Source: Candidatus Woesearchaeota archaeon (lineage in GTDB: Archaea > Nanobdellota > Nanobdellia > Woesearchaeales > UBA10200). From it: DNA of 45,229 nucleotides. The stretch covers positions 1 to 45,229 of the forward strand of contig JACPBN010000006.1 of the NCBI GenBank assembly GCA_016180275.1. The letters are read 5' to 3'. Every line of letters begins with the position of its first letter. Within the stretch, counting starts at the first letter, position 1. The translations under genes were made by a program, and so were the position numbers. The notes beneath the pieces are model-generated. The model was not told the origin of the DNA, searched no databases, and saw only the letters and a program-made list of their open reading frames with translations. Below are positions 9,427 to 31,849 of this stretch, piece by piece.

Positions 9427-9456
9427 ATTATAAAAATAATCATTATAAAAATAATC
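9427..9456. repeat. Perfect tandem duplication, 2 x 15 bp (attataaaaataatc)
   Basis: 9427-9441 is identical to 9442-9456, with a partial third copy (attt). Located between the TATA box and the start codon. Confidence 0.85.
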
Positions 9457-9472
9457 ATTTAAGGCGCCTAAG

Positions 9473-10867: not shown

Positions 10868-10893
10868 GTTTAATGTTAGGCTATAGAGTAAAA

Positions 10894-10996
10894 ATGACCA
10901 TCAACAAACATAACCAAGCACGAAGAGCACCTAAAAAAGCAGTACAAGAATAGATTAGAGGCTCTTAAAGACATCCATCATGAAGACAGGTTTTAG
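10894..10996 (+). pseudogene. Copy B of the 5' end of the 13518 gene (frameshifted, ~33 codons)
   Basis: One extra nt near the start relative to copy A, then TKHEEHLKKQYKNRLEALKDIHHEDRF*. The last 31 nt (cttaaagacatccatcatgaagacaggtttt) are identical to 13588-13618 of the intact gene. Confidence 0.8.
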
Positions 10997-10998
10997 TT

Positions 10999-12348
10999 AT
11001 GAAAGAATCCGAAACACTTGAGCTAAAAACATCAACATCTGAATTAAAGGAAGCCATAATCTCAATAGTTGCAATGCTGAACAAGCATAAGAAAGGCAAA
11101 GTGATATTTGGAATGGGAGATGATGGAACTGTTATTGGGCAGATGATTAGCGACAACACATTGAGAGAAGTATCACAAGCCATATTTGATAACATTGAGC
11201 CTAAGATATATCCGACGATTGCTGTAGAAGAGCCATCTATTGCAGTAAGTTTTGAGGACAATAATGCACCTTTTACAGCATATGGCAGAGCCTATATTAG
11301 AGTCGGCACAGAAAATAAAAAGATGACCCAACAAAAATACAATGAGTTATTATCCCTGAAAGCTACAAAACTAGAGTGGGATGCCCTGCCAATAAAAAAT
11401 ACATCAATAAAGGATATAGATCAAAAAAAAGTAGCTGCTTATCTTGAAAAAAGAGAGCAAAATAGAAGAATATCGAAGAAGATAAGCATGAAAAATCAGG
11501 AATTCCTAGAGAACATTAATGCATTGACAAAAGACGGTTTAGTGACAAATGCAGGTATGCTATTTTTCGGCAAAAATCCACAGAAACATATTTTACATTC
11601 TTCACTAAGGCTTGTAAGGATAAAAGGAACAGATATAGGCGGATTAATCTTAGACAGGATTGATGGCACCGGCACCTTATGGGAGATGGTAGAGCAAGCA
11701 GAGGATTTTATAAGAAGAAACATTAAATTAATAGGCTATAAAACTGAAAAAAGCTTTCAAAGGCAGGATAGATTTGAATACCCGATAAGCGCTTTAAGAG
11801 AAGCTATAATAAATGCGCTCATACATAGAAATTATCTGATAAAATCTGAGGCAATAGCTTATATTTATGATGATAAGATAGAAATTCTTAATCCTGGATT
11901 ATTCCCTAAAGGAACTACACCTGAACATCCAAAACATATCCCAAGAAATTTCTTGCTCAGCCAATATATGTATGATATCGGAGAAGTTGAAAAATATGGC
12001 TCAGGAATATTATCAATAAAAAAGAGATGCAAGGAAAATGGGAATAAATTGCCTAAATATGTATTTTCCGAACTTCACACTAAAATAATCTTCTATTCAT
12101 TAGAGCCAGAGAGAACTACCATGAGCAGCGGATTAAGTGAGGGATTAAGTGAGGGATTAAGTGAGGGATTAAAATCACTCCTTAATATTGTAATAAATAA
12201 TCCTGGAATTAAAGCTGTTAAAGTAAGCGAACTTTTACAAAGGCCTATAAAAACAATAGAAAGACAGATAAAAGAGCTAAAGCAAAAAGGCTTCATTGAG
12301 AGAAGAGGAAGCAGGAAAACAGGAGGATACTGGGAGATAAGTAAATAA
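10999..12348 (+). CDS. AlbA_2 (Schlafen-like, divergent AAA) plus HATPase_c_4-like plus C-terminal wHTH protein
   Basis: N-terminal ESETLELKTSTSELKEAIISIVAMLNKHKKGKVIFGMGDDGTVIG. Central YPISALREAIINALIHRNY. C-terminal VSELLQRPIKTIERQIKELKQKGFIERRG. Confidence 0.8.
   Translation: MKESETLELKTSTSELKEAIISIVAMLNKHKKGKVIFGMGDDGTVIGQMISDNTLREVSQAIFDNIEPKIYPTIAVEEPSIAVSFEDNNAPFTAYGRAYIRVGTENKKMTQQKYNELLSLKATKLEWDALPIKNTSIKDIDQKKVAAYLEKREQNRRISKKISMKNQEFLENINALTKDGLVTNAGMLFFGKNPQKHILHSSLRLVRIKGTDIGGLILDRIDGTGTLWEMVEQAEDFIRRNIKLIGYKTEKSFQRQDRFEYPISALREAIINALIHRNYLIKSEAIAYIYDDKIEILNPGLFPKGTTPEHPKHIPRNFLLSQYMYDIGEVEKYGSGILSIKKRCKENGNKLPKYVFSELHTKIIFYSLEPERTTMSSGLSEGLSEGLSEGLKSLLNIVINNPGIKAVKVSELLQRPIKTIERQIKELKQKGFIERRGSRKTGGYWEISK
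12130..12172 (+). repeat. In-frame tandem 12-bp repeat (ggattaagtgag x3 plus a partial copy) encoding (GLSE)3GL
   Basis: 12130-12141, 12142-12153 and 12154-12165 are identical. The repeat forms a linker before the C-terminal wHTH. Confidence 0.9.
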
Positions 12349-12360
12349 GAAACCACAAAA

Positions 12361-12450
12361 ATGCCAATCAACAAGCTAACACAACATGAAGAATATTTTA
12401 AGAGGCAGTATAAGGATAGGTTGGAAGCAATAAATAACCGTAAACTTTAA
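12361..12450 (+). pseudogene. Copy C of the 5' end of the 13518 gene (29 codons then stop)
   Basis: MPINKLTQHEEYFKRQYKDRLEAINNRKL*. Homology to the intact gene ends after RLEA, where the TATA box of the next cassette begins. Confidence 0.75.
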
Positions 12451-12454
12451 ATAT
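12442..12454 (+). promoter_or_regulatory. TATA box (aaactttaaatat) of the MNT-HEPN cassette
   Basis: Ends 24 nt before ATG 12478, which is leaderless spacing. Confidence 0.5.
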
Positions 12455-12477
12455 CAGTTGATAACTATAGTTGACAT

Positions 12478-13005
12478 ATGATAACTAAAGATAACAGCCT
12501 AAAAGTGATGGAAGTTTATTATAACAACCCTAGCGGAACTTTCCATATAAGGGAGCTTGCAAGGATCACAGGATTATCTAGCACAGGAATCATAAAGATA
12601 GCCAAGAGATTAAAGCAAGACGGATTATTAACATCAGAAAAGAAGAATGTTATTGAGGAGATAAGGCCAATATTAGAGACAAAGTTTTACCTGATGAAGA
12701 GGCTATATAATACTTATTCATTATATGAAAGCAGATTAATAGAGGAATTAAAGCATTTTTACGAACAGCCTGAAGCAATAATATTGTTCGGAAGCTATGA
12801 AAAAGGGACTGATAATGAAAAAAGTGACATAGATATAGCGGTGATAACAAATAAGCAAAAGCTCCCTGAATTAACAAGATTTGAAAAAAAGCTTAAGAGA
12901 AAGATAGACATTTTAACAATAGACCTTAAGAGCGCATCAAAGGAGTTTAAGAATTCGCTGGCTAATGGAATTGTGCTTGAAGGATATCTGGAATTGATAA
13001 AATGA
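12478..13005 (+). CDS. wHTH-fused nucleotidyltransferase (MNT-type antitoxin-like)
   Basis: N-terminal HIRELARITGLSSTGIIKIAKRLKQDGLL (wHTH). NTase motif ILFGSYEKGTDNEKSDIDIAV. Confidence 0.8.
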   Translation: MITKDNSLKVMEVYYNNPSGTFHIRELARITGLSSTGIIKIAKRLKQDGLLTSEKKNVIEEIRPILETKFYLMKRLYNTYSLYESRLIEELKHFYEQPEAIILFGSYEKGTDNEKSDIDIAVITNKQKLPELTRFEKKLKRKIDILTIDLKSASKEFKNSLANGIVLEGYLELIK

Positions 13006-13053
13006 TGACATTAAATAATAATATGATGCAACAATAAGAACATCGCACTAAAA

Positions 13054-13515
13054 ATGATACAGCCATTTGAATATTACATAAGAGAGAACCTAGTTGGAAA
13101 AACTGCCCCAAATACAAGCTTAGCCCTGGCTTTGATTAAAAAAGCAGAGAAAAGATTTAAGCGCATACAAAAGGCAGAAATTGCAGAAGATGAATCTACA
13201 CTGATCTTTGAAGATATATACGAAGCGATGAGAGAAGCCGGACAATCATTAATGCAGCTAGCGCAATACAAGCCATACTCTCATGAAGCAGTTATTGCAT
13301 TTCTTGATGACAAAGAACTGTTAGCCAAGATGAATATCAACATCCTTGATAATTACAGGATCCTGAGAAATAAGGCGGTATATCAAGCAGAGGAGATATC
13401 TTTGGAAAAATGCAAGGAAGCATTTAATTTTGCTAAAATAACCATCCCAAAGCTTAAAATAAAGTTTTTAGAGATGAATAAAAAGACTGATTTACAAAAA
13501 AACAAAGAAGCTTAA
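13054..13515 (+). CDS. HEPN-like partner of the nucleotidyltransferase
   Basis: All-helical ~150-aa protein directly after the NTase. Motif YRILRNKAVYQ (RNxxxY at the position of HEPN Rx4-6H). Same arrangement as 15629-16048. Confidence 0.6.
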   Translation: MIQPFEYYIRENLVGKTAPNTSLALALIKKAEKRFKRIQKAEIAEDESTLIFEDIYEAMREAGQSLMQLAQYKPYSHEAVIAFLDDKELLAKMNINILDNYRILRNKAVYQAEEISLEKCKEAFNFAKITIPKLKIKFLEMNKKTDLQKNKEA

Positions 13516-13517
13516 CT

Positions 13518-14450
13518 ATGCCAACCGACAAACTAGCGCAGCACGAAGAATACTTAAGAAAGATGCACAAGAATAGGCTGGAATCCCTTAAAGACATCCA
13601 TCATGAAGACAGGTTTTTTGAGACAGGGCTTGGCAATAATCTGCTTGAATTAAAGAATGCGGTCCATGACCTTGCTGAGAAAGGAAAAAAGATTACTTCT
13701 AAAGAGATTAAAGCAGTAATTGGCAACCAAAATATAAAAACAGAGTTAAGAAAATTCATTTATGCCAGAGTTGGGCATTTAATTAAAGAAGCTGAGTACC
13801 TCAAGAATGTTGCCTGCGCAATTGAAAATGAAAAGCATGATTCAAAGCATCTGGAGCATTTTGTGGAGAATATTGAAAGCTATGCCGTACACCTGAAAAA
13901 AGAGAGGGAGAGGGAGGTTGAGCATCTATTGCATAATTTCAGGCATACATTTGCAAGCTTGCTGCATCCGATAACTGCACATGAGCATAAATTAGCTGGT
14001 TTGCTGGAAAAGAACGTGCATCTGCTGAGGACATTGCTGCATAAGGATGAGCTAAGGCATTTTGCAGAGAATCTTCACAATGATGATGTGATCAATAAGA
14101 TGAAAGAGAGATTTGGCGAGAATAAGACTGGCAAAGCACTGTATCATTTTATTGAGCAGCATACTAAACTAAAATCATTGCCCGAGAAATTGATTGAGCG
14201 CGGGAGAAAAGTTTTTTCACGCGAATTGACAAAACATGAAGTTTTATTTAAAATCGCAGACATGCTTAATGAGAGAGCTGAGATTCTTGAGGAAAAAGCA
14301 AACAAGAAGATAAGAAAGATTATTGGCAAACAGATAAAGGCAATTGAGTATAAATGGGAGCAGGCAAAGAAAAAAAGCAGCAAATTGCTTGATGAGGCAT
14401 TAGAGCACCATTCCAAGATGGAAAGGTTCTATAGGAAGATTGGGCTATAA
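13518..14450 (+). CDS. Histidine-rich helical/coiled-coil protein (310 aa), unknown family. Its 5' end is the repeated target sequence.
   Basis: Long ORF with many H residues in helical context (HLEHFVENIESYAVHLKK, HLLHNFRHTFASLLHPITAHEHKL). The intact N-terminus matches fragments A-C. Confidence 0.75.
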   Translation: MPTDKLAQHEEYLRKMHKNRLESLKDIHHEDRFFETGLGNNLLELKNAVHDLAEKGKKITSKEIKAVIGNQNIKTELRKFIYARVGHLIKEAEYLKNVACAIENEKHDSKHLEHFVENIESYAVHLKKEREREVEHLLHNFRHTFASLLHPITAHEHKLAGLLEKNVHLLRTLLHKDELRHFAENLHNDDVINKMKERFGENKTGKALYHFIEQHTKLKSLPEKLIERGRKVFSRELTKHEVLFKIADMLNERAEILEEKANKKIRKIIGKQIKAIEYKWEQAKKKSSKLLDEALEHHSKMERFYRKIGL

Positions 14451-16082: not shown

Positions 16083-16151
16083 GCCAAATCCTATTATACG
16101 TATAAAAACGTGGATATAAGTTATTAGAAGATTATATACGTGCATATACGT

Positions 16152-16337
16152 ATGACTAAAAAAAGCAGTAAAGAAAGCAATAAGGAGAAATTTACGCTAT
16201 ATCTGGACAAGACTCTTAGAGACAGCTATAAAGAATTCTGCCAATTAAGAGGCTATATTCCTTCCAGGATGATTGAGATTTTCATTGAGCAGGAACTGCA
16301 AAAAGCCAGAGAGGATGCTAAAAAGAGAGTAAAATGA
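16152..16337 (+). CDS. Small ribbon-helix-helix-like DNA-binding protein
   Basis: MTKKSSKESNKEKFTLYLDKTLRDSYKEFCQLRGYIPSRMIEIFIEQEL fits the RHH pattern. ATG 16152 is preferred over the track GTG 16140. The stop overlaps the next start (ATGA at 16334-16337). Confidence 0.5.
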   Translation: MTKKSSKESNKEKFTLYLDKTLRDSYKEFCQLRGYIPSRMIEIFIEQELQKAREDAKKRVK

Positions 16338-17407
16338 AAATGACTGCTAAAAAAAATAAAAACAATGCAAAGAAAAATAGCAAGAAGATTGCATTTTACG
16401 TATTTATTGCACTGATAATAGCAATTAATCTGTCAATTATTGCATATGCAGCATCTACTGACAGATTCTGGGATATTGTTGAAAAGATGTATGATTTTGA
16501 GTCAAGGTATGAGAAAAATCTGAAAATATGGGACTTTTTGCTGTTCTCAACAATATTTAACATAATTGCATGGATTGGATTAGTAAAAGCATTCCCGGAT
16601 AATAAAGCAGCAGCTTTCATATTAGCCTTAGTAATAGGCGTAGCGCTTGGTTTGGGAGCAGTGAAAGGAAACCTAACTGTCAAATTCTTTGTTCCATTTG
16701 TGAAGAATATATTGTTCTTTATAGTTATGGGCATAATATTTTTTGTGCTGATTAAGTTTGACATGAACAAATTCCTTGCGTTTATTTTAGCTTTGGTTAT
16801 TACTTTTGTTGCGTTCAATGTGCTTGGGCTGTTTGGCGCAGTTGATACAGGAGGATTGTTCGGAGGAAAGACAAGCTATGACACTTATGATCAGATAAAT
16901 GACCGATTAATTGCCCTGGGCAACAATTATCGTGTCACGTTTGATATTTCAGATGATATTGCTGCAAAGAGCAAGAAGCTCAGAGTGGCGATGCAGAGAG
17001 AGCAAGGAAAGCTGGAGGAAGAGCTCAAAAAGAACCCTAATGACAAGACTGCAAAATCCAAGCTTGATCAGGTCATTGCACACATAAATGAGCTGAATGA
17101 GCTTGAGAGAAAAGGTGCGCTGCTTGAGAAGGAAGAAGAGAAGAAAATCGCAGAGAGAGCTGCAATAGAGTATGATAAGTTCAGGGAGAATTTGACAGAA
17201 ATAAAGAAATTGAAAGGGGATACTCCCGAGCAAGTAAATGCAAAATTTGTTGACCTGAAAAAATTGAATGATGTGATTGAAGAGGAAGAAGGGAAAGTTA
17301 AAGGAACAACTATACCAACTCCAGCACCCACTGGTACTCCGACTCCACCTGCAGGTACAACACCAACAAGCGGAGCAGCTGCATCTGGACCAAATGCTGC
17401 TGATTAA
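16334..17407 (+). CDS. Membrane protein (signal anchor plus 4 TM), coiled coil and P/T-rich tail. Paralogue of 25299-27404.
   Basis: Conserved TM core AAAFILALVIGVALGLGAVKGNLTVKFFVPFVKNILFF...FLAFILALVITFVAFNV (nt ~16607-16831). Coiled coil KLEEELKK...LLEKEEEKKIAERA. Tail TPAPTGTPTPPAGTTPTSG. Confidence 0.8.
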   Translation: MKMTAKKNKNNAKKNSKKIAFYVFIALIIAINLSIIAYAASTDRFWDIVEKMYDFESRYEKNLKIWDFLLFSTIFNIIAWIGLVKAFPDNKAAAFILALVIGVALGLGAVKGNLTVKFFVPFVKNILFFIVMGIIFFVLIKFDMNKFLAFILALVITFVAFNVLGLFGAVDTGGLFGGKTSYDTYDQINDRLIALGNNYRVTFDISDDIAAKSKKLRVAMQREQGKLEEELKKNPNDKTAKSKLDQVIAHINELNELERKGALLEKEEEKKIAERAAIEYDKFRENLTEIKKLKGDTPEQVNAKFVDLKKLNDVIEEEEGKVKGTTIPTPAPTGTPTPPAGTTPTSGAAASGPNAAD

Positions 17408-20330: not shown

Positions 20331-20391
20331 AGGATATTTTACCCCTGCTAAAATATTAGGTTATGTAATAATAGCAGGGTTGTTTATAAAT
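20331..20391. repeat. Direct repeat copy 1 (61 bp) with an internal GC hairpin and TATA-like end
   Basis: aggatattttacccctgctaaaatattaggttatgtaataatagcagggttgtttataaat. Stem ccctgct/agcaggg. About 53 of 61 nt are identical to 21959-22019. Confidence 0.8.
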
Positions 20392-20411: not shown

Positions 20412-21662
20412 TTATTCTACTAAACTTGGCATCAATGCTGTTTTCCATGCAGGCACTAGCTTTATTAAATGATTTTTAGCTTTTATGCCCTGCTCAGTAT
20501 CCTTAGTTATCACAACAGCAGAAGTTTGCTTGAATTTTTCCATAAAATAATGTAAATTAGTGAGATCTTCATTTTTTATAGTTTCCTTATATTTTACTTC
20601 TATCGGCTTTTTATTTTTTATTATGTCAATTTCTTTCTCATGCTCTCGCCAATAGTATTTAGCATCAAATAGTGCAATAAATAGATTTTCAATAACTTTA
20701 CTTTCATCCAAATTTAAGCAAAAGCATGGATGATAAGGATAAACTTTTCTTAGTTTCCTAGATGAACTTAAAGCGCTACCCCTATAATTTTTGACTATCC
20801 GTATCAGCAGCCCTTGTGCTAAATAATTTATATGCTTGCCAAGAGTTTCTTTGCCTCTTTTAAGATCTTTTGCCAAGTTGTCTATGTTAAGTATTATGCC
20901 TCCTTCTTCAAAAAATATGTCTTTTAAAGTTTCTAATAGTTCAATGTCAACATCTTTAAATTCCTTTTTGATATCGTAAGAAAGGACTCTGCTAATTATG
21001 AATTCATGGATGTATTTTTTTGCTGAAAGCTCATCTCTTAAGATAGCAATTTCAGGAAAAGGAGTTTTTAGATACCATTTAAAATGATTCTTAAGCTCTG
21101 ATTCATGCAGAATAATCTTCTTCTCTTCTATTCTGATGCCATTTAATAACAGCCATTCATTAAAGCTTAACGGCTCTAATTTTAAAAAATTAATTCTTCC
21201 AGCTAAACTCTCAGCTATATTCTTTGTCAATGTTAGATATGAAGAGCCTGAGATGAAAAATTTTATATTAGGGTAGAGATCATAAAATATTTTTAATTTG
21301 TTCTGCCAGTCATCTAATTTCTGTATCTCATCAAAAAAAACAAAATATTTGCCATTTTCTAAATCTAAAGAATGCAGCTCTGTATATACTTTAAGTATTT
21401 CTTTAACTTCTGCAACTTTCTGGTCGAAAGAAAAGTAAAGGAGATGTTCTGGCTTAATACCTTTCTTTATTAAGTGTTCAATAGTTTGAAAAAACAATGT
21501 AGATTTACCAGTTCTTCTTAACCCAAATAATGCAATTATTTGTTTAGAGGATATGTAGTTGATTATCTTGCTCAATAATTCTCTCTCAAAATGTTTTGCT
21601 AAGTCTTCTTTAACTTTTCCGGTTTTCCACCAAGGATTGAATAAGAGCAGGATATCTTTCAT
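20412..21662 (-). CDS. AAA+ ATPase, AAA_14 plus DUF4143 type
   Basis: LFNPWWKTG start motif, Walker A GLRRTGKST, Walker B FVFFDEIQ. Overall layout matches 35649-36995. Confidence 0.85.
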   Translation of the reverse strand: MKDILLLFNPWWKTGKVKEDLAKHFERELLSKIINYISSKQIIALFGLRRTGKSTLFFQTIEHLIKKGIKPEHLLYFSFDQKVAEVKEILKVYTELHSLDLENGKYFVFFDEIQKLDDWQNKLKIFYDLYPNIKFFISGSSYLTLTKNIAESLAGRINFLKLEPLSFNEWLLLNGIRIEEKKIILHESELKNHFKWYLKTPFPEIAILRDELSAKKYIHEFIISRVLSYDIKKEFKDVDIELLETLKDIFFEEGGIILNIDNLAKDLKRGKETLGKHINYLAQGLLIRIVKNYRGSALSSSRKLRKVYPYHPCFCLNLDESKVIENLFIALFDAKYYWREHEKEIDIIKNKKPIEVKYKETIKNEDLTNLHYFMEKFKQTSAVVITKDTEQGIKAKNHLIKLVPAWKTALMPSLVE

Positions 21663-21686: not shown

Positions 21687-21699
21687 TATATAAATTTTT
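21687..21699 (-). promoter_or_regulatory. BRE/TATA box (minus strand aaaaatttatata) of the ATPase gene
   Basis: Ends 25 nt upstream of the minus-strand ATG at 21662 (leaderless spacing). Confidence 0.5.
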
Positions 21700-21752
21700 C
21701 GTTCTGAAACTAGAACGAATGTTTATATTATTCGTTCTGAAACTAGAACGAA
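21698..21752. promoter_or_regulatory. Two identical 22-bp palindromes ttcgttct-gaaact-agaacgaa, 33 bp apart, flanking a second TATA-like box
   Basis: 21698-21719 and 21731-21752 are identical. The first abuts or overlaps the minus-strand BRE; gtttatatta lies between them. Confidence 0.6.
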
Positions 21753-21958: not shown

Positions 21959-22019
21959 AGAATATTCCACCCCTGCTGAAATATCAGTTTTTGTCATAAT
22001 AGCAGGGTTGTTTATAAAT
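21959..22019. repeat. Direct repeat copy 2 (61 bp)
   Basis: agaatattccacccctgctgaaatatcagtttttgtcataatagcagggttgtttataaat. Same hairpin arms and the same 3' gggttgtttataaat as copy 1. Confidence 0.8.
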
Positions 22020-23320: not shown

Positions 23321-23539
23321 ATGAAAATAGAAGAATTAAAAAAACAATATAAGGATGAATGGGTGCTGGTAGAAATCATTGAAGAGGATAAATTAAATAG
23401 GCCACAAGAAGTTAAATTGATTGCGCATAGCAAAAATAGAGATGATACATATGATGCTATGGTAAAAAATAAAAAAAAATACACCTACCATTTTTATACA
23501 GGAGAAATCCCTGAAAAAGGTTATGCGGTGGCATTTTAA
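23321..23539 (+). CDS. Small DUF5678-like protein
   Basis: 72 aa: LKKQYKDEWVLVEII...VKLIAHSKNRDDTYDAMVK. Its stop overlaps the next start (TAATG). Assignment is from memory of the family pattern and is tentative. Confidence 0.45.
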   Translation: MKIEELKKQYKDEWVLVEIIEEDKLNRPQEVKLIAHSKNRDDTYDAMVKNKKKYTYHFYTGEIPEKGYAVAF

Positions 23540-23925
23540 TGGGAAATCATAATTTGGATAAGAACGCTTCAGTAATTGTTATTGAAGTATTGATAGAAAA
23601 TAAAGGCATTAAGAAAAAATTAAAGATGGTCCTTGATACAGGCGCCACATATACCTTAATCCCATGGCAGGTTGCAGAAGCGCTGAATATGGAGCCTGCC
23701 TTAAGTAAAACAAGGGCAGATATTATAACGGCATCTGGAGTAGAAAAAGTTCCATTGATGTTTGTTGAATCTGTTGCTGCATTTGATAAAAAAGCAGAGA
23801 ACGTCAAAATAATTGTCCATGACCTGCCAGCAAAAAGCTATGTAGATGGATTATTGGGATTAAGCTTTTTGAGAAATTTTAATCTTCATATTAATTTTAA
23901 GGAAGGATACTTAGAGTTAACATAA
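23539..23925 (+). CDS. Retropepsin-like (clan AA) aspartic protease
   Basis: Catalytic [11 protein letters not shown] motif. The 128-aa size and the C-terminal [11 protein letters not shown] pattern are typical of single-domain retropepsin-like proteases. Confidence 0.75.
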
Positions 23926-23939
23926 AAAGAGGAACTACT

Positions 23940-24284
23940 TTGTCCAACAACATCGCAAAAATACTCGGCAAAGATACTGTATGGCTTATTCTGGAAGAGT
24001 TAGCTAGAGGCAATAAAACACCCACTGAATTGGCTGAGAAATTCCAGATGTCAGTAGCTAATGTAGATAATTTTCTTGCAAGATTAGAGGATAAGCAGAT
24101 AGTAAAAAGAACTAAGAAAATCAAGAAAGGCCGCGGAAGACCATTTACTGAATATGCACTAGACAGATGCCCAATTATTGTAATGATACCCAGCCAAGGC
24201 AAGAAAGTCCTGCTTGAGCTGAATGATAATGATCTCAATGAGTTAAATGAATTTATCAGGAAGAATAATGGTGAGCAGGTCTGA
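23940..24284 (+). CDS. Winged-helix (ArsR-like) transcriptional regulator
   Basis: [47 protein letters not shown] start with SD aagagg 7 nt upstream. The last 24 nt are duplicated at 25273-25296. Confidence 0.6.
24261..24284. repeat. Direct repeat copy 1 (24 bp), the 3' end of the regulator gene
   Basis: aagaataatggtgagcaggtctga, identical at 23 of 24 nt to 25273-25296. Confidence 0.85.
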
Positions 24285-24335
24285 GAAATAAAAAAGAATA
24301 CAATAACTTAAGGTCACAATTTGTTACCATAAAAA

Positions 24336-24360
24336 AAGGTATCGCAAAATGCGATACCTT
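24336..24360. other. Strong hairpin aaggtatcgc-aaaat-gcgatacctt
   Basis: 10-11 bp perfect stem between the regulator gene and the ORF6N gene, inside the inserted segment. Could be a terminator, an operator or a recombination site. Confidence 0.5.
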
Positions 24361-24388
24361 AAATGTTTGGAGAAGAGGTAAGAAAAAT

Positions 24389-25267
24389 ATGCCCAGAGAA
24401 TTAGCTGTTTTTAATCAAGAAGAGGTTAAAAGCAAGATTTACACTATTCGCGGATTACAAGTAATGCTAGATAGGGATTTAGCTGAACTTTACGAAGTTA
24501 CAACATTTAATCTTAATAAGGCGGTTAAAAGGAATAGTAAGAGATTTCCATTAGATTTTATGTTTCAATTAACAGAAGAAGAATACAGTAACTTGAAATT
24601 CCATTTTGGAATATCAAGTTGGGGCGGTCGAAGAACCTTACCTTATGCTTTCACTGAACAAGGCGTAGCAACGCTTTCAGGTGTATTAAAAAGTACTAAA
24701 GCTATTGAGGTTAATATTCAGATAGTTAGAGCATTTGTCGCTATGAGAAAGTTTATTTCCGCAAATGCTCATATCTTTCAGAGATTAGATACTGCTGAAA
24801 CTAAACTGATTGATCATGATAAGAGATTTGAGCAAGTGTTCAAAGCAATTGAAAGCAAAAGCATCAAGCCTGAGAAAGGCATATTTTTTGACGGGCAGAT
24901 ATTTGACTCATATAAATTCGTTTCAGATATCATCAGAACAGCTAAAAAATCGATTGTTTTGATCGACAATTACATAGATGATTCTGTTTTGACGCTATTC
25001 AGCAAGAGAAATAATAATGTGCAAGCCATCATATTTACTAAAGAGATCTCTAAGCAATTATCCCTTGACTTAGCCAAATATAATTCACAATATCCTTCAA
25101 TTGAACTGAAAGAGTTTAAGCAGTCGCATGACAGGTTTATCATAATTGACAATAAGGAAGTCTACCATTTTGGAGCATCATTGAAAGACTTGGGAAAGAA
25201 ATGGTTTGCTTTCTCAAAATTTGATAAAGATGCATTTAAGCTTTTAGATAAGCTATGGTTAAAATGA
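24389..25267 (+). CDS. ORF6N-domain (KilA-N-related) DNA-binding protein with a C-terminal degenerate PLD-like region
   Basis: N-terminal IYTIRGLQVMLDRDLAELYEVTTFNLNKAVKRNSKRFPLDFMFQLT...LPYAFTEQGVATLSGVL. C-terminal SIVLIDNYIDD...HDRFIIIDNKEVYHFGASLKDLGKK. Confidence 0.8.
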   Translation: MPRELAVFNQEEVKSKIYTIRGLQVMLDRDLAELYEVTTFNLNKAVKRNSKRFPLDFMFQLTEEEYSNLKFHFGISSWGGRRTLPYAFTEQGVATLSGVLKSTKAIEVNIQIVRAFVAMRKFISANAHIFQRLDTAETKLIDHDKRFEQVFKAIESKSIKPEKGIFFDGQIFDSYKFVSDIIRTAKKSIVLIDNYIDDSVLTLFSKRNNNVQAIIFTKEISKQLSLDLAKYNSQYPSIELKEFKQSHDRFIIIDNKEVYHFGASLKDLGKKWFAFSKFDKDAFKLLDKLWLK

Positions 25268-25272
25268 CAATA

Positions 25273-25296
25273 AAGAATAACGGTGAGCAGGTCTGA
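25273..25296. repeat. Direct repeat copy 2 (24 bp), ending 2 nt before ATG 25299
   Basis: aagaataacggtgagcaggtctga. Confidence 0.85.
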
Positions 25297-25298
25297 AT

Positions 25299-27404
25299 AT
25301 GAGAAGCAATAATTTTAACAATAAATTTATGAGAAAGTTGATTGTGAATATTTCATATATAATAATAGCTCTGATGCTTAGCATTGTCGTAATAAATATC
25401 GCAAGCGCAGAAACAACACTTGAGCAGGATGTTGCAAGTTTTGGGAGGTCAGCATTAGGAAAACTAAGCGGGCAAAGCAACACGAAAGGAGTTGGCAATG
25501 ACCCCATACAAGGCACAGGCAAGCTGGTTGATTTTTATAACAGGAACCAGAGCCTGATAGATTTCTTTATCATGTTTGCACTGTTCTGCAGCATTGCATT
25601 AATTGGATTAAAGAAGACAGGATTTGGGGAGTCAGGAGGAAATGCCATGAAGGGATTAGCGATTGCAGTTGGAGCAGCATTGGCAATTGCTGCATTAAAA
25701 GCCGGATATTCCCCTAGCTTTTTTGTGCCATTTGTAAAGAATTTCCTGTTCCTGATAATATTCTTTGTAATATTTATGGTAATAAAAGCCACAATGAGTC
25801 AAAATGTTCTCCTTGCATTTATTTTGGCTTTAGTAATAACATGGGTTGCATTTAATGTAGCTAATTTGGTGTTAGAAGGCAAGGAGAATAAGTTTGACAT
25901 GGCGAATGTGTTCAAATTGATGGCAGGCTCTCCGACTGATACAGACGAACAGAGAAGGCTGAGCAATATTGAGGTAAGGCAGACACAAGATGAGCTGGAC
26001 GCGCTTTACGAAGAGAAAGGGCGTCTTGAAGAATTGATTGGAAATGGAGAGTATAAATCAAAGTTTTTAGTGGAGCAAGCACGTGAGAGTGAAAAAGATG
26101 AGAAGAAAAAAGCAAACTTAATGAGATTATTTGATGTGATGGGAAAAATAGAAGAGCTTGAGGCAAAGATGCAGAAAGAGATGGGCAAGAGATTTGATTA
26201 TGACAAACAAAATCCTACAACGCCTAAACTAAATTTAAGAATAAGTGATGATAAAACTAAATTAATTTGCACAATTGACCCTACAACAGGAAAGATGTCT
26301 GGCGCTCCTGAAAATGTGAATAAAGACATAAAATACAGATTTGAGTTTTCTGTTGACGGTAATGTTAAGAAATATTATGATATTGATTATAAGGACAGGG
26401 CAACTGAACAGACGTATTCATTAGAAAAAGAAGGAGTTTGGAAATGCAAAGTTTATGCTTATATAGAAACATACGGCAAGACACCAGACCAAGTTACGCC
26501 GGGAGAGGCAATGCTGGATTATTTAGGCGCAGAACATGAAGCAGATAAAACTGCATTTGAGACTAATAAAGCAATAATAGAAAGCGAGAGAGAAGCTACT
26601 GATAAAATTAATGGTGCAGTTGCTGCATTGAAAGGATTAAAAGGAAGGACATACTATAATAGGAATAAAAACGAAATAGATAAGTTTATAAATGCTGGAG
26701 AAATAAAGGTTAAAGCAATAAATGTTTACAAAGAAGTTACAACTGAGCAGGCAACTATTGCTAGCATAACAGGTACTACAGCAACAGAGATAGCAAGTAA
26801 GAAAAAAGCTAAAATTGATCCTTTGATTAGTAAAATACAAGAGGTGTTGAATATCTGGAAACCTTATAGAGGCATTGATACTGCATTTGATGCACTTCTT
26901 GATAATAAGTTAGCTGAGTTAAAAGGTTCTTCTCCTGATACAACTATCCCTAATTTTGCTGGAAAAAGAAATGTAGATAGTTCATCTGGACAAAAATACA
27001 CTTTAACAGATGATGACGAATTTATAAATGGCCAGCCGAAAGGTGAGTACGGAGTAAAAATTAATTTTGGGCCAAAAGAGATAATGGTTGCACAAAAACA
27101 AACTATCAGGCTTTCTATATCCTTGGATAGCGAGATACCTAATAAGTTTAGAATAATTTTCGGCCATGCCGTGAATCAGGTTTTAGCTAGCCAGACAATT
27201 GATGAGACAATAGATAATTCTGCTAAGACAATCAACTTTGAGATTCCTGTTACTAGTTATGATGCACGTAATTCGCAGAAAGAGATAATTGTAGAAGTAT
27301 ATGATATGGATGGAAATACAGCGAGTACAAATATTGTTAGATTTGAATATAATGTAAATGTACAGCCTGCAGGACCAATACAATATGGCTCTGGAAAATT
27401 ATAG
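25299..27404 (+). CDS. Membrane protein (signal anchor plus 4 TM), coiled coil and a ~420-aa beta-rich C-terminal region. Paralogue of 16334-17407.
   Basis: Core AMKGLAIAVGAALAIAALKAGYSPSFFVPFVKNFLFL...LLAFILALVITWVAFNV (nt ~25647-25868) aligns with the operon-2 protein. Coiled coil DELDALYEEKGRLEELI...IEELEAKMQKE. Confidence 0.8.
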   Translation: MRSNNFNNKFMRKLIVNISYIIIALMLSIVVINIASAETTLEQDVASFGRSALGKLSGQSNTKGVGNDPIQGTGKLVDFYNRNQSLIDFFIMFALFCSIALIGLKKTGFGESGGNAMKGLAIAVGAALAIAALKAGYSPSFFVPFVKNFLFLIIFFVIFMVIKATMSQNVLLAFILALVITWVAFNVANLVLEGKENKFDMANVFKLMAGSPTDTDEQRRLSNIEVRQTQDELDALYEEKGRLEELIGNGEYKSKFLVEQARESEKDEKKKANLMRLFDVMGKIEELEAKMQKEMGKRFDYDKQNPTTPKLNLRISDDKTKLICTIDPTTGKMSGAPENVNKDIKYRFEFSVDGNVKKYYDIDYKDRATEQTYSLEKEGVWKCKVYAYIETYGKTPDQVTPGEAMLDYLGAEHEADKTAFETNKAIIESEREATDKINGAVAALKGLKGRTYYNRNKNEIDKFINAGEIKVKAINVYKEVTTEQATIASITGTTATEIASKKKAKIDPLISKIQEVLNIWKPYRGIDTAFDALLDNKLAELKGSSPDTTIPNFAGKRNVDSSSGQKYTLTDDDEFINGQPKGEYGVKINFGPKEIMVAQKQTIRLSISLDSEIPNKFRIIFGHAVNQVLASQTIDETIDNSAKTINFEIPVTSYDARNSQKEIIVEVYDMDGNTASTNIVRFEYNVNVQPAGPIQYGSGKL

Positions 27405-27424: not shown

Positions 27425-30400
27425 ATGAGAGAATTTAATACAATTAAAAAAACAGGTGTAATATTTCTGTTAGCTGTGGCTTTATTCTTGTTATTATCTG
27501 CTTTAGGCTATTCAACCCCTGATGATTGCCTATCAAACCAAGATTCAAGGATAGAAGCTTCATGGAGGTTATTCCATAAAAATTCTCAAGGCAAATACAC
27601 TACTAAAAATGAAGTCAAGGACGGATATAATTTCTTAAAGGCTGCCGGTGTTGTAAAGCAACGTTTGACAGAATGCGGCGGACGTGATTACTATAAGAAA
27701 ACTGTTTCTGTATCTGTAGGAGGAAGCACAACCCCAATTTATATTGATGACATATATGACTTAATGAAAACAAGAGCAGAAGCCTTAGGAGTATTAACAG
27801 AATATTATCTTTTATTTCCTGATATCTATAGAGGGATATCAACAGACAAGGTAACTTTTGAGCTTCATGTTAAGATTCCAGATGCATTGAATACATACTT
27901 TGAATCTGTTAGCGGATACCCTGTAATTTATGCTGAAGCTGAGAATAATAGGTTAAACCCTCCGGCAATATCATTTGTTGAGAAAAGGCCTGGCTCACCT
28001 GATTCAGTATATGTATATAGAGGAGAAGTAAGTCTGTTTAGAGATACCGAGAATGTAATTTTTAGATCGCAAATATATAATGGTTTTGGATTAAAGGATT
28101 TCAGCGCAAGCTATACTAAAGGAAGCTCGCAGAGTATTAATTTAATCTTTGAGAAATTAGGCGTTACTACACATAAGCTTGTTATTAATACTTATGCAGA
28201 GGCAGATTTAGGGGCCGGTGGAGTAGAAAAAAGAGTAATAGATGGTGTTGTAACAGACCCTAATAGCTTACCAAATGATTTGGTAAGTGTATATAGATTA
28301 GACGGCTCAACCAGAACAAAGATTATAGACAACAAAAGGGCAACATTTACTGTTGATGTAGCTATTGGGAGTAATTATGAAATAGAATGGAAAGATCTCT
28401 TAAGCACACAGTCATTGCAGAGAGAAATGGAAAGATATACCATCTCGTTAGCTAATGTTAGCACAACAGAAAGCAGGTTTGAAAATGTGTATAAATTGCA
28501 AAAAGTGACTAAGCCTATTACAGTCAGTAGAAGATCAAGTAACTCTATCGAGATTATAATGCCAATAGAGTTTCAAAGCCAAGTTAATTTTAATTCAAAG
28601 AGCAATTATTTAATTCATCAAGTAGGTAACGATGCAAATAGCCTAACAATCCAGGATGTTGAGCCAGTCACTAAAACAAGCGATAGCAGGGTTATTGTAT
28701 TAAATGTTGGAAATCAACAAAAAGGAGTGCAGTATGATGTCTGGCTAATTACAGGAGCAGGCAATAAGTTTTTAGGAAGATTTGTAGGAGATGCGCAAGA
28801 GACATTACAGTTTACTGCAGGAAGTGTGACATTTGACCCATCTGTCGGGAATATTGGGCAGCTAACGCCTGGGCAGAGCAAGGAATTTGTTGCTACCTTG
28901 GATAGTAGTTTTCCTTCAACAGGATTAACATGGGAATGGCAAGTATTGCAAGGAAGTAAAGATATAACAGATACAGCACAGAAAAATGCAGTCAGAAGAT
29001 ATTTATTTACTGCACCAAATATTGCAGGGGAATATATTGTTAAATTAATTTTAACGCAAACATCCCAAGCAACAAAAAAAACCGGATTTTGGATATTCTC
29101 ATCAACTGAAACTGTAACCAAATCGAATCCTATTAATCCAACTGCAATTAATAAAAGAGCAGAATGGAGATTAACAATTAATGACAAAGCAACTGTGCAA
29201 GACAGATTAACACAGATAGAATCAAAAATTGGACAAGCTAATGCAGAAAAGCAGAAACATGACGAGTTAATCAATACTATTTATAACAAACTACGAGCAG
29301 AGAGAGATGGTGTTAAAACAAATGCACTCATAAATATCAATGGTGCTCTAAAAAAATTAGATGAAGCACTGAAGAATAATTTTAAAGATATTAACTTAGA
29401 TGATCCAGCCAATGCATATCTTGTAAATAAAAAGGCTGAAGTAGAGCAATTAAAGATTTCATTTACTGCTATAAAGACAAAGACAGAAAATATAAATCTT
29501 GATGGGCCGCAGTTTAAGTACGATAAAGCTTTCTTTGACACAAATCTTAAGTTTAATCAACAGCCAGTTAGTGGTCAGACATTTAGAGTAGATAGGATTT
29601 CTATAACTGATGTAACTGGTCTTCAGACTGGTGTAACAAAAGATGCCGTGTTTAATTATGTTAAGAAGACATGGGGACAAAAAACTATAAGCGGTAAACC
29701 TATAGATCCACAAACAGGAGATGATGATACTGCCATATTTACAGTTAAAAAGCCAACTGTTAGAGAAGGCTCAATAGTAACTTTAGAATTATTTGCAAAA
29801 GAGGGAGAAATGCAAGGCAAAAAGATTACTGAATTTACTTGGACAATAGATACTCCATTAGACGTTGGCTTGAATGTTGTTAAGGAAAGAACAGATGATG
29901 TAGTTAGGCCAGGAGATGTTTTAACATTTAATATTGTGCCAAAGCAACAGGGTGTTGATTTTGAGGAATATAAGAAAAGAATTAAATCAACTGCATGGGC
30001 AGTAAATCCTGCTACCGGAGCAACTAAAACAGAAGAAGCAATAGATCACTCAAAAGTTAAGTTTGATGATGCCGGAACATATACTATTACTGCTACTTTT
30101 GATTCTGAGTATGCAGATGTAGCTGGAGTAAAAGCTGAAACACAAATAACTGTTGAATTGCCTGATGATGAACCAAAGATTATGCTGATAAGTGCACAAG
30201 CAGAGAAGTTATACAATGAAGGCAAGACTGAATTATCAGCTGCAAATGCTGAAAAGCCACAAAACCAACAGAAAAGGGATGCTGCAAAGAAAAAATTAGA
30301 AGATGCTAAAAGATTATATGATCAATTAGATAAAAAATTTGAGGCAGCAAAAGCTGCTAATAAGCAATTTGCAGGATTGACAATTACACAGCCACAGATT

Positions 30401-31849
30401 AAACAGAAAATAACAGATATTGATAAATTAATACAAGATGAATATACTGCTAAACCAGTTGAGTTTGCATTTACTAAGCCAGATCCAAGCACTGTAGTAA
30501 GTGGTAAGCATGAAGTGACAAAAGGAGCAAAGGTAGAATTTGAGATTAAAGTTGATAGTAAAGTAATTGTGCCAAATTTCAAATGGGTTTATGATCAGAG
30601 CAAGATAAAAATAGATAGAACTACACTTGGAGCAAATACTGGCTCAGGAGAAGTTTTAGCAAATGTTGGAGAAGAGTTTGATGTAAGTGTAAAAACAGAT
30701 GATGAAAGTTTACAAGCAATTGCAAGATTTAAAGTTGTTGATACCCCATCTACTAAGATTAAAATAACACCTATCGGAACAACAGATTTAGATTCATCTG
30801 ATAATGTTGTTGAAGTTAATCTAGCACCAGAAGAAGAGCTTGGTTTTAATGTTGAAACTAAACCAGCAGGCAATGCTGTCCAAGCAAACAAAGTTAGAGA
30901 AGGTGATTTACTAGAAACATTAGATTATCCTGCTAAAGATAAAATTCATGTTAAGTTAAAAGGAACTGCAGCCAGTCCTGCAACAGTTGAATTATCTGTA
31001 AATGATCCTACTAGTGGCTCTACTGCAACGCCTGTCACTATAAAGATCAATGTAAAAGATAAAGGAACTATATTTAGAATAAATGCACCAAAGGATAAAT
31101 TGCTAAGAAATGAAATGATAAAGATTGGAATAGAGCCTGCTACAATTCCTGCAACAGATATTACTTGGGCATTAGATTCAGCTAGCCAAGCTTTTGCTAC
31201 TATCAATAATCAAGGCGAATTAATAGTTAAAGAGAGTGTAGGATTTGGCTCCAAAATTACAGTTACAGCAGCCTATAAGGGCAGCTTAAGGTTAACAACT
31301 GCACAACAAACAAAAGAATTTAGTGTAGTTAATTCACTTACAGTTGCATTTACTTTAACGCCATCTCAAAGAACCCTAAAGCAAGGTGATACTGAAACGT
31401 TTACTGCTGTCGTTAAACCAGTAGAAAATGTAGTTATAACAAAGTGGGAGAAGATAGGAGATACTTTGAATGAGGTTGAAGAAGTCAGTAAAAATCAAAA
31501 TTCAATAACTGTTAAGATCAAAGATGTGCCTAATAGTGTACCTGGAAGCAAAATAATATTAAAAGCAACTACTGATGATGGCAAAGAATCTAGTGTTGAG
31601 ATTACAATCGGGGATAAGAATGATAAGACAATAACATTATATGATGAAACAACAAAAACTGCAGATACATTGGAAGGAAATTTCAATGGCGCAACTGCTA
31701 AAGTTGGAACAGAAACATATGTGCAGTTTGATGGCAAATGGTATAAGCCTGCTGGCAAAAGCATACCTTATCTGAAAGTATTGTTCAATGCTGCAAAGAA
31801 CAAAGGTGAAGTTGATCCTGTAAAGATACAGGCATTGTTTGATAAATAA
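27425..31849 (+). CDS. Giant secreted protein (1474 aa) with multiple Ig-like/beta-sandwich repeats and two coiled-coil inserts
   Basis: Signal peptide VIFLLAVALFLLLSALGYS. T/V/K-rich beta repeats. A Big_2-like segment ATINNQGELIVKESVGFGSKITVTAAYKG. Coiled coils around aa 590-680 and 925-985. No C-terminal TM anchor. Confidence 0.8.
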   Translation: MREFNTIKKTGVIFLLAVALFLLLSALGYSTPDDCLSNQDSRIEASWRLFHKNSQGKYTTKNEVKDGYNFLKAAGVVKQRLTECGGRDYYKKTVSVSVGGSTTPIYIDDIYDLMKTRAEALGVLTEYYLLFPDIYRGISTDKVTFELHVKIPDALNTYFESVSGYPVIYAEAENNRLNPPAISFVEKRPGSPDSVYVYRGEVSLFRDTENVIFRSQIYNGFGLKDFSASYTKGSSQSINLIFEKLGVTTHKLVINTYAEADLGAGGVEKRVIDGVVTDPNSLPNDLVSVYRLDGSTRTKIIDNKRATFTVDVAIGSNYEIEWKDLLSTQSLQREMERYTISLANVSTTESRFENVYKLQKVTKPITVSRRSSNSIEIIMPIEFQSQVNFNSKSNYLIHQVGNDANSLTIQDVEPVTKTSDSRVIVLNVGNQQKGVQYDVWLITGAGNKFLGRFVGDAQETLQFTAGSVTFDPSVGNIGQLTPGQSKEFVATLDSSFPSTGLTWEWQVLQGSKDITDTAQKNAVRRYLFTAPNIAGEYIVKLILTQTSQATKKTGFWIFSSTETVTKSNPINPTAINKRAEWRLTINDKATVQDRLTQIESKIGQANAEKQKHDELINTIYNKLRAERDGVKTNALININGALKKLDEALKNNFKDINLDDPANAYLVNKKAEVEQLKISFTAIKTKTENINLDGPQFKYDKAFFDTNLKFNQQPVSGQTFRVDRISITDVTGLQTGVTKDAVFNYVKKTWGQKTISGKPIDPQTGDDDTAIFTVKKPTVREGSIVTLELFAKEGEMQGKKITEFTWTIDTPLDVGLNVVKERTDDVVRPGDVLTFNIVPKQQGVDFEEYKKRIKSTAWAVNPATGATKTEEAIDHSKVKFDDAGTYTITATFDSEYADVAGVKAETQITVELPDDEPKIMLISAQAEKLYNEGKTELSAANAEKPQNQQKRDAAKKKLEDAKRLYDQLDKKFEAAKAANKQFAGLTITQPQIKQKITDIDKLIQDEYTAKPVEFAFTKPDPSTVVSGKHEVTKGAKVEFEIKVDSKVIVPNFKWVYDQSKIKIDRTTLGANTGSGEVLANVGEEFDVSVKTDDESLQAIARFKVVDTPSTKIKITPIGTTDLDSSDNVVEVNLAPEEELGFNVETKPAGNAVQANKVREGDLLETLDYPAKDKIHVKLKGTAASPATVELSVNDPTSGSTATPVTIKINVKDKGTIFRINAPKDKLLRNEMIKIGIEPATIPATDITWALDSASQAFATINNQGELIVKESVGFGSKITVTAAYKGSLRLTTAQQTKEFSVVNSLTVAFTLTPSQRTLKQGDTETFTAVVKPVENVVITKWEKIGDTLNEVEEVSKNQNSITVKIKDVPNSVPGSKIILKATTDDGKESSVEITIGDKNDKTITLYDETTKTADTLEGNFNGATAKVGTETYVQFDGKWYKPAGKSIPYLKVLFNAAKNKGEVDPVKIQALFDK

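Follow-up and report, generated by a model that had tools for sequence, protein, structure and literature searches.

An ORF6N gene between two copies of a regulator gene end at a regulator/membrane-protein junction in a Woesearchaeota archaeon

The interrupted operon and its repeat

The locus described here carries a single gene of the ORF6N family which sits, between two copies of a 24-nucleotide (nt) direct repeat, at the junction of a transcriptional regulator gene and a membrane-protein operon. The DNA analyzed, referred to below as the window, is the full stretch of 45,229 nt from Candidatus Woesearchaeota archaeon (assembly GCA_016180275.1, contig JACPBN010000006.1); it is AT-rich (about 34% GC), and its protein matches assign it to Woesearchaeota-like DPANN archaea. 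All genes and repeats of the locus lie on the plus strand. The regulator gene (23940–24284) begins with TTG and encodes a 114-residue winged helix-turn-helix (wHTH) protein of ArsR/MarR/Lrs14-like type, as judged from domain matches and orthologues. Its final 24 nt, TGA stop included, form repeat copy 1 (24261–24284). There follows an inserted segment of 988 nt (24285–25272), missing from six related assemblies, which consists of the relic of a second ORF6N-family gene (24287–24370), an intact ORF6N gene encoding 292 residues (24389–25267) and a 5-nt 3' tail, CAATA. Repeat copy 2 (25273–25296) is identical to copy 1 at 23 of 24 positions, carries the GGTGA..AGGT..TGA initiation region of the membrane gene and ends 2 nt before the ATG of that gene (25299–27404), which encodes a 701-residue membrane/surface protein and is the first of a surface-protein operon whose second gene (27425–31849) encodes a protein of 1474 residues.

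An earlier note on this DNA, made from the sequence alone, had pointed out that the regulator gene ends in 24 nt that recur with one mismatch 2 nt before the ATG at 25299, and the sequence bears this out: copy 1 reads AAGAATAATGGTGAGCAGGTCTGA and copy 2 reads AAGAATAACGGTGAGCAGGTCTGA, the single difference being a T to C change that is synonymous in the regulator frame. The view that such a recurrence is unlikely to arise by chance also holds, as no further match to the 24-mer exists in the window at up to 3 mismatches and none of 100 dinucleotide-preserving shuffles yielded two matches. As the assembly of the window is of metagenome type and short repeats can cause chimeras, the possibility that unrelated contigs were joined at the repeat has to be considered. 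The left and the right junction are, however, each reproduced at 100% identity by a Logan contig (L001 and L002, respectively) from different sequencing runs, the same gene order recurs in other samples (L005/L009, L006 and L007), and 24 nt is below the k-mer size of those assemblers. Since L001 and L002 are independent contigs, the arrangement is not an assembly artefact, and we assign mis-assembly a negligible likelihood.

Uninterrupted junctions in related genomes

Regulator orthologues were gathered by protein search, by look-ups of gene context and by pattern scans of metagenome and genome collections. The uninterrupted junction was found in six close-relative assemblies whose regulators are 93–96% identical to that of the window. 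In L003 and L004 (NCBI metagenome-assembled genome and Logan; regulator 93%), the regulator TGA is followed by 2 nt (ag) and the ATG of the membrane gene, with the identical 24-mer present once. This is exactly the arrangement which the earlier note had predicted from removing one repeat together with the intervening DNA, for which the empty junction would read ..GGTGAGCAGGTCTGAATATGAG... In L012, L015 (UBA10200), L014 (RIFCSPHIGHO2) and L008 (regulator 94–96%), the stop and start overlap as TTGA, and ATGA overlaps are found in the more distant L010/L011 and L016 (63–64%) and L013 (48%). The membrane-protein gene thus either overlaps the regulator gene by 4 nt or starts 2 nt beyond it in uninterrupted orthologues down to 48% identity, which means that the coupled regulator-to-membrane-gene state is ancestral and that the 988 nt at 24285–25272 of the window are an insertion. 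The locus P0008 (regulator 85%), where the gene table gives a 4-nt overlap with the next gene, is probably another empty site.

These relatives also bear on a simpler explanation, in which the ORF6N gene is an ordinary resident of the operon and the 24-mer is a repeated signal with a function of its own, such as an RNA element, a common terminator or an operator of the wHTH protein. It would have gained ground had the relatives always carried the ORF6N gene with the same two repeat copies; the six related assemblies lack the gene and hold the sequence only once. Copy 2 is plausible as a ribosome-binding or coupling region, and each occupied lineage has conserved its two copies, as a functional signal would lead one to expect. 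On the other hand, the 24-mer is the regulator's own coding 3' end, it has no palindromic structure, and it has no Rfam match (a scan of 22–26 kb at E ≤ 1 returned two sub-threshold chance matches only). The only terminator-like structure in the insert consists of relic coding sequence in the wrong orientation, as described below. We regard this explanation as hardly credible.

A paralogous regulator and membrane-protein operon (operon 2) lies in the window at 16140–17407. As the earlier note had stated, its 65-residue ribbon-helix-helix-like gene overlaps the paralogous membrane-protein gene (16334–17407) by ATGA, at 16334–16337. The 701-residue protein itself evolves fast, with 42–58% identity to its orthologues beside a regulator at 82–96%, and its N-terminal codons and start type vary by lineage (ATG after 2 nt, or TTG within a TTGA overlap).

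A second occupied lineage

The same junction is occupied in a second lineage (L005, identical to L009, and L006 and L007; regulator 82.5% identical), where a 292-residue ORF6N gene, 84% identical to that of the window, lies in the same orientation. Copy 1 of L005 reads AGA AAA AAT AAT GGT GAG ATG ATT TAG and copy 2 reads ATA AAA AAC AAC GGT GAG ATG ATT TGA, to be compared with ...AAG AAT AAT/C GGT GAG CAG GTC TGA in the window. Both copies in L005–L007 therefore carry their own lineage's sequence (GGTGAGATGATTT, vs. GGTGAGCAGGTCTGA in the window), and within each lineage the two copies agree at five positions that tell the lineages apart. On the right, the boundary is alike in the two lineages, with the ORF6N stop, CAATA and then the repeat (TGACAATA followed by AA..). 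The regulator stop of L005, TAG, arises at the junction itself. The duplication measures 24 nt in the window and 22–23 nt in L005 and has the same left boundary in both, a comparison of two events only.

The substitution rates at synonymous (dS) and non-synonymous (dN) sites give the relative age of the insert. Between the window and L005, the regulator has a dN of 0.126 and a dS of 2.4 (saturated, with a bootstrap median of 1.5), while the ORF6N gene has a dN of 0.083 and a dS of 0.61 (bootstrap 0.45–0.83). For comparison with empty sites, the regulator dN and dS between the window and L012 are 0.038 and 1.57, those for L014 are 0.046 and 1.43, and those for L003 are 0.038 and 0.56. As the ORF6N dS of 0.61 is far under the regulator value of about 2.4, the ORF6N gene passed between the occupied lineages long after they split, and this contrast, together with the lineage-specific repeats, means that this junction received at least two integrations, with local sequence on both sides of each. 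The cassette is thereby shown to be horizontally mobile, with two or more entries here in separate lineages.

It is nevertheless worth asking whether a single ancient insertion could account for the same pattern if it was inherited vertically and then deleted precisely at the repeats on several occasions, with gene conversion or selection keeping the two copies identical in each lineage. The ORF6N proteins of the window and L005 match each other better than any other of more than 8000 homologues (84%, vs. at most 79% for others), the two lineages share the right junction TGACAATA and the small reading frame that begins there, and direct repeats of 24 nt can delete precisely. Against this stand the disparity in dS of the two genes within the same genome pair (0.61 vs. 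about 2.4), the fact that the empty-site lineages are nearer to the window than L005 is, so that at least two precise losses would be needed, and the five concerted changes within a 24-nt repeat, which would require repeated short-tract conversion. We judge it very unlikely that the insert was inherited vertically from one event.

The wider distribution of the ORF6N family fits a horizontally mobile gene. Its top matches (70–84% identical) occur in Woesearchaeota, Nanoarchaeota, Micrarchaeota, Altiarchaeales and some bacteria, and relatives of about 50% identity sit on Legionella, Bacteroides and other plasmids. Only 5 distant relatives turned up in viral contigs, so that viruses are not the main carriers of the family; the phage collection gave partial matches only. 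Further local plasticity near ORF6N genes is seen in one strain, where the upstream neighborhood of an otherwise identical ORF6N locus (P0025) has been replaced by the gene of an IS200-type Y1 transposase (L022, 2411–2848).

The spacer relic and its hairpin

The spacer from the regulator stop to the ORF6N ATG measures 105 nt. The earlier note had described the roughly 1 kb between the repeats as holding only a strong hairpin and the ORF6N gene; the hairpin is real, but it is contained in the relic at 24287–24370, whose frame (NKKEYNNLRSQFVTIKKGIAKCDTLNVW) is 76% identical over 17 residues to the ORF6N domain of P0061 (KEEYENLRSQFVTLNKG) and also matches codons of the intact ORF6N gene of the window (repeat D4). 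The hairpin (24336–24360, no strand assigned) is a perfect palindrome with an 11-bp stem, AAGGTATCGCAAAATGCGATACCTT, and has a folding energy of −17.6 kcal/mol with a z-score of −5.1. Its core, GGTATCGCAAAATGCGATACC (24339–24359), has the same 21 nt that encode VSQNAIP in the intact ORF6N gene of L031 (1358–1378). A compensated variant of the hairpin, GGTATCACAAAATGTGATAC, ends a truncated 106-residue ORF6N reading frame in L032 (1172–1191), about 29 nt upstream of a full-length ORF6N gene, so that the layout of L032, truncated ORF6N and then full-length ORF6N, equals that of the window. These matches show the hairpin to be relic ORF6N coding sequence rather than a structure of the cassette.

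A role of the hairpin as terminator of the regulator gene was considered and rejected, since its T-run (a T7 tail) is on the minus strand only and it is relic coding sequence. The promoter and terminator scan likewise placed the sole terminator-like site of the insert on the minus strand; its sigma-70-type matches were at shuffle level and are irrelevant for an archaeon. No intergenic oligo-T run was found on the plus strand at either insert end, the only T-runs of at least 5 in 24285–25298 being those at 24408 and 24884 inside the ORF6N coding sequence, which makes read-through transcription plausible.

The palindrome GGTATCGCAAAATGCGATACC is identical in the otherwise diverged L031 gene, and the compensatory pair change in L032 alters a residue from A to V; this conservation suggests that the DNA or RNA hairpin may be under selection. 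The ORF6N domain has a variable "LxSQxxTS" repeat region there, in which the palindrome may also act as a hotspot of recombination. Two further candidates were set aside. The bases GAAATAAAAAAG right after copy 1 had been taken for the remnant of an L012-type membrane-gene start (TTGAGAAATAAAAAAAG), which is now ambiguous as the same A-rich bases fit the ORF6N relic (..NKKEY..), and a 12-nt repeat in L032 between the ORF6N start and the start of the next gene (ATGAATAGAGAA and ATGAATAGAAAA) is too short to tell from chance.

The ORF6N protein

The intact gene is predicted to encode an N-terminal ORF6N domain, a long helix and a C-terminal domain resembling phospholipase D (PLD) and RhuM proteins. 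The ORF6N domain (Pfam PF10543, residues 15–99) scores 113.4 bits vs. a cutoff of 27.8, and the PADLOC profile of the candidate defense family PDC-S05 (PDLC04869) matches residues 6–288 with E = 1.4e-124 across profile positions 10–299 of 306. With these scores, the protein is classed clearly as a member of both families. Its C-terminal half is about 50% identical to annotated RhuM-family proteins, with weak matches to NsnC and to the Mokosh PLD protein MkoB; a sequence search of the PDB gave no significant match.

An AlphaFold model built with 36 homologues has an overall mean pLDDT (predicted local distance difference test score) of 67 and is confident for the C-terminal domain only (about 85–93 across residues about 165–288, including about 170–270). 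The predicted C-terminal domain has the PLD fold, with Foldseek matches to NucT, Zucchini, PLD3/4, F13, FAM83, MITD1 and Tdp1, while the full-length model matched the archaeal chromatin protein TrmBL2 (wHTH, long helix and PLD-like domain). In place of the catalytic motif HxK(x)4D(x)6GSxN, the family has the invariant motif H247-D-R249-F-x-I-I-D254...G262-A-S-L-K-D, in which the His and Asp are present, the Lys is replaced by Arg and GSxN by GASL; several of the top fold matches (TrmBL2, FAM83 and MITD1) are non-catalytic.

Enrichment of PDC families has been reported for DPANN archaea (PMC12988326), and a preprint (10.1101/2024.09.26.614923) found that E. coli was protected from T7, T5 and T4 by one representative of PDC-S05. 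RhuM-like proteins associate with restriction-modification loci (PMC3710099). The cargo of the window matches the PDC-S05 profile end to end and belongs with these ORF6N/RhuM-like candidate defense genes. The published reports concern a defense role in that family, and among the PDC-S05 reports found none describes an insertion with target duplication or an operon-junction context.

Translational coupling across the insert

Termination–reinitiation coupling in archaea requires overlaps or very short gaps between genes (PMC6728339, PMC10666635). In the uninterrupted relatives, a Shine-Dalgarno-like GGTGA or GGAGA lies in the last codons of the regulator, whose stop overlaps the membrane start or precedes it by 2 nt; in the window the C-terminal codons ..KNNGEQV* hold GGTGA/AGGT, a sequence that serves the next gene where the junction is uninterrupted. 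The last six bases track the start type, in that CAGGTC-TGA-nn-ATG puts AGGT 6 nt upstream of the ATG, and the alternative end (C/A)(A/T)GATT-TGA yields a TTG start within the TTGA overlap.

The occupied window keeps the stop/start geometry of a coupled gene pair, with an ATGA overlap at one step and a 2-nt gap at the other. The final A of the last ORF6N codon together with the TGA creates an ATG in the regulator frame, and thereby opens a mini-ORF (open reading frame), MTIKNNGEQV* (25264–25296), whose ATG overlaps the ORF6N stop and whose TGA lies 2 nt ahead of the membrane-gene ATG. The corresponding mini-ORF of L005, MTIKNNGEMI*, ends in a TTGA overlap with the membrane gene. From this geometry we infer that the mini-ORF preserves translational coupling, and the ORF6N gene would be expressed by read-through from the regulator promoter.

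A comparable arrangement occurs at a different target. In L028/L029 (L028 341–1900, ENA ERZ27254845 k141_1265730), an ORF6N gene 76% identical to that of the window lies between an AbrB-like regulator gene and the gene of a 500-residue surface protein. Its frame continues into a duplicated regulator 3' end (...LDKL-ESERGGR*) and then overlaps the ATG of the surface gene by ATGA. The duplication is about 260 nt long, roughly 60–76% identical, and takes in the regulator 3' end and the first ~70 codons of the surface gene, with a truncated 81-residue copy of the surface-gene 5' end upstream. This is an independent ORF6N insertion, from another metagenome, and it seems that such insertions can persist only if the hand-over signal of the downstream gene is made anew. 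The source gene caller for L028/L029 read through two TGA codons.

Other repeat-flanked genes in the window

Two further sets of single-gene units between direct repeats are found elsewhere in the window. Four diverged copies (62–83%, 69–91 nt) of the start region and first 25–35 codons of the gene at 13518–14450 (MPTDKLAQHEEYLRK...) lie at 9322–9390, 10904–10994, 12370–12438 and 13527–13617, the first three being truncated or frameshifted. Those copies are followed by accessory cassettes, namely an ATPase_2 and DUF234 gene (9473–10867), a Schlafen/AlbA_2, HATPase_c_4 and HTH gene (10999–12348), and an HTH and nucleotidyltransferase gene (12478–13005) plus 13054–13515. The array at 9322–13617 looks like a series of cassette insertions, each of which would have duplicated the 5' end of the same target gene.

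A 61-nt direct repeat (20331–20391 and 21959–22019; 87% identical, with an inner inverted repeat CCCTGCT...AGCAGGG) brackets an AAA_14/DUF4143 ATPase gene on the minus strand (20412–21662), and the first copy begins 13 nt past the stop of the 1013-residue gene of operon 2. The ATPase gene is a further single-gene unit with duplicated local sequence on both sides. Just upstream of its start on the minus strand, at 21690–21750, are two tandem palindromic motifs, TTCGTTCTGAAACTAGAACGAA, that are operator-like.

The region directly upstream of the regulator (23321–23925) encodes a 72-residue reading frame with a 1-nt overlap (TAATG) with the gene of a 128-residue retropepsin-like aspartyl protease (PF13975/PF13650). 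The protease neighborhood is not kept in L003, where an MNT/HepT toxin-antitoxin pair is found instead.

How the gene may have entered

A transposase or integrase is not encoded in the insert as far as profile searches can tell: Pfam found the ORF6N domain only, NCBIfam and PADLOC found no transposase, and no recombinase domain was detected. The insert has no terminal inverted repeats, the longest inverted match between its 50-nt termini being 6 nt, and no pair of inverted repeats joins its two ends. No tyrosine or serine recombinase is encoded within 23.3–34 kb, and a tRNA scan of the window found none, so that the locus is not a tRNA-targeting island. The nearest recombinase gene, at 41260–42141 and 16 kb away, encodes a 293-residue XerA-like protein, the only tyrosine recombinase of the window, that scores 219.8 bits against NF040815 ("site-specific tyrosine recombinase/integron integrase"; cutoff 220). 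No link was established between this gene and the insert or the other repeat-flanked cassettes.

The earlier note had read the repeat as a target duplication made by a one-gene mobile unit with no recombinase of its own. Insertion, mobility and the missing recombinase are all borne out, the amendment being that an ORF6N relic accompanies the gene, and the reading as an insertion scar was largely right. With moderate confidence we favor insertion of a cassette with target duplication, by a mechanism left unspecified. A promoter-less and recombinase-less cassette, made up of the ORF6N relic and the PDC-S05 gene, would have entered in the orientation of the operon at the stop/start junction of the coupled regulator and membrane-protein genes, duplicating the last 22–24 nt of the regulator gene as it integrated. 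The duplication may have arisen at integration either from staggered breaks that were filled in or from microhomology-primed repair, with the catalyst acting in trans or, possibly, being the PLD-like protein of the cassette itself. In favor of duplication at integration are the host-type sequence of both copies, the common left boundary and the similar lengths in the two lineages. Whereas a 1-kb insertion would be expected to break the coupling, copy 1 would keep the regulator C-terminus and stop codon, and copy 2 would restore the original initiation region before the membrane gene, with the ATG that overlaps the ORF6N stop completing a 10-codon relay frame that could hand terminating ribosomes to the membrane-gene start. 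The direct repeats could also mediate precise excision, in which case the circle junction would read ..TTAAAATGACAATA, the 24-mer and GAAATAAAAAAGAATAC...

Several observations weigh against this explanation. The left boundary of the insert differs, with a relic of ~100 nt in the window vs. 10 nt from the regulator stop to the ORF6N ATG in L005, only two occupied lineages are known at this junction, and the integration step lacks an assigned catalyst. The ATG of the mini-ORF arises trivially from any codon ending in A plus TGA, and as only 3–4 substitutions bear on constraint in the mini-ORF, an argument for a functional peptide from the all-synonymous differences between the copies was set aside as weak. 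The earlier note had proposed a search for this ORF6N gene, with its hairpin, between other duplicated host sequences: duplicated flanks are present in L005–L007 and L028/L029, but the other ORF6N loci (L017–L027, L030 and L031) lie in unrelated contexts without flanking repeats, which means that the duplication is not a general signature of the ORF6N gene. In each of the two occupied lineages an AAT of copy 1 is matched by AAC in copy 2, which hints that the left part of copy 2 was possibly cassette-borne and not freshly duplicated. Finally, the duplications measure 22–24 nt here, 61 and 69–91 nt for the other cassettes of the window and ~260 nt in L028, the longer ones being 60–87% identical; such variation is easier to reconcile with recombination between homologous arms that had diverged than with a staggered cut of fixed length.

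The last three of these points are what would be expected if integration were of the Campbell type. Here a circle or fragment carrying a captured regulator 3' end or target 5' end would integrate by a single host crossover, the two repeats being the host and the donor copy, and excision would regenerate the circle and the empty site. Divergence of 60–87% identity is as for donor and recipient alleles, an AAC specific to copy 2 could be common to both lineages, and most ORF6N loci could be free of repeats. Such integration would require no element-encoded enzyme, matching the missing recombinase, and would also account for reuse of the site and for arrays such as that at 9322–13617. What it does not predict is the sequence of the repeats at this junction: transfer across lineages should leave hybrid repeats, with copy 1 carrying the right half of the donor, and the right halves are identical and host-type in both lineages. 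Moreover, the targets of the two lineages share only 12 nt (AATAATGGTGAG), which is very short for homologous recombination, and the first capture of the arm is left unexplained. We therefore keep Campbell-type integration as a real but distinctly less probable account of the locus.

A more speculative extension of target duplication at integration is that the locus belongs to an undescribed class of DPANN cassettes, without recombinase or promoter, that join gene ends or translation-initiation regions with a target duplication of 20–100 nt, build arrays and keep coupling. The cargo of such a class would comprise the ORF6N/PDC-S05, AAA_14-DUF4143, DUF234 ATPase, Schlafen/AlbA_2 and MNT-type genes. 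The catalyst of the duplication step might act in trans or, in the case of ORF6N, be the encoded DNA-binding and PLD-like protein working as a transesterase. The existence of this class, and the cargo proposed for it, we consider unlikely at present.

What the locus adds is a case documented by comparison (one occupied site, six that are empty and another insertion of independent origin) in which a candidate defense gene entered an operon without disrupting it and the duplicated gene end would double as a ribosome hand-over signal. DPANN archaea have tiny genomes with few recognizable mobile elements, CRISPR or restriction-modification systems, and are rich in single-gene candidate defense genes. 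If the pattern were general, it would offer a simple route of gene gain and loss in reduced genomes, and a duplicated gene end around a single reading frame would be a signature by which annotators could recognize recent acquisitions. Otherwise, the locus is an insertion polymorphism that is well supported but of an ordinary kind.

Comparison with known systems

The insert differs from insertion sequences and DNA transposons in having neither a transposase nor terminal inverted repeats. It shares with site-specific integrative elements at gene 3' ends, which bring a replacement end with them (att core repeats), a direct repeat that equals the 3' end of the target and leaves the target gene intact. 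Integrase-mediated elements, however, would bring an integrase, and both repeat copies here are host-type rather than attL/attR hybrids, with a single base of copy 2 (AAC) shared between the lineages. The Xer dif/pdif modules are 28-bp sites with two 11-bp inverted arms and a 6-bp spacer, whereas the 24-mer has no dyad symmetry.

Casposons (14–15 bp) and the duplication of CRISPR repeats by Cas1-Cas2 are known for long target duplications. The insert resembles them in its duplication of more than 10 nt at a gene 3' end and in the reuse of the site, and differs from them in having no Cas1, no terminal inverted repeats, a single small cargo gene and a duplication length that is not clearly fixed. 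In the "orphan" arrays of Rhs/CDI systems, toxin tips are replaced at 3' ends by homologous recombination. Truncated copies of gene ends beside new modules, as in the 81-residue 5' fragment of L028 and the four 5' fragments at 9322–13617, recall those arrays, but in the present case it is a 5' end or initiation region that is duplicated, and the cargo bears no relation to the gene at the target site.

Integron cassettes are promoter-less reading frames that are mobile without a recombinase of their own and form arrays, and integrons have been reported in Archaea. The insert is likewise a promoter-less single reading frame in the orientation of the upstream promoter, without its own recombinase, and the array at 9322–13617 invites the same comparison. 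It differs at its 3' end, where TGACAATA is followed by the host repeat with no attC-type palindrome with R and L boxes and no adjacent intI or attI, and its flanking repeats are the local host gene end and not a cassette-borne site. A reading as an integron or an Xer module was accordingly rejected for lack of attC- or dif-like sites.

The PeSL "mobile regulatory cassettes" of T4-type phages, and morons, are single accessory reading frames bracketed by short repeats that hold expression signals, and are gained and lost by recombination. The gene of the window similarly rides on host-operon transcription between short direct repeats with no dedicated recombinase, although its repeat is the 3' coding end and initiation region of the flanking genes rather than a promoter and stem-loop, and its setting is a DPANN chromosome. 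The likeness to integron cassettes, phage morons and PeSL units is a functional one, that of a promoter-less reading frame on an upstream promoter, gained and lost via flanking repeats. On present evidence, the locus is a variant of known cassette-type gene mobility and not a categorically new system, while the recurrence of repeat-flanked single-gene units in the window may leave room for a general, undescribed mechanism in DPANN archaea.

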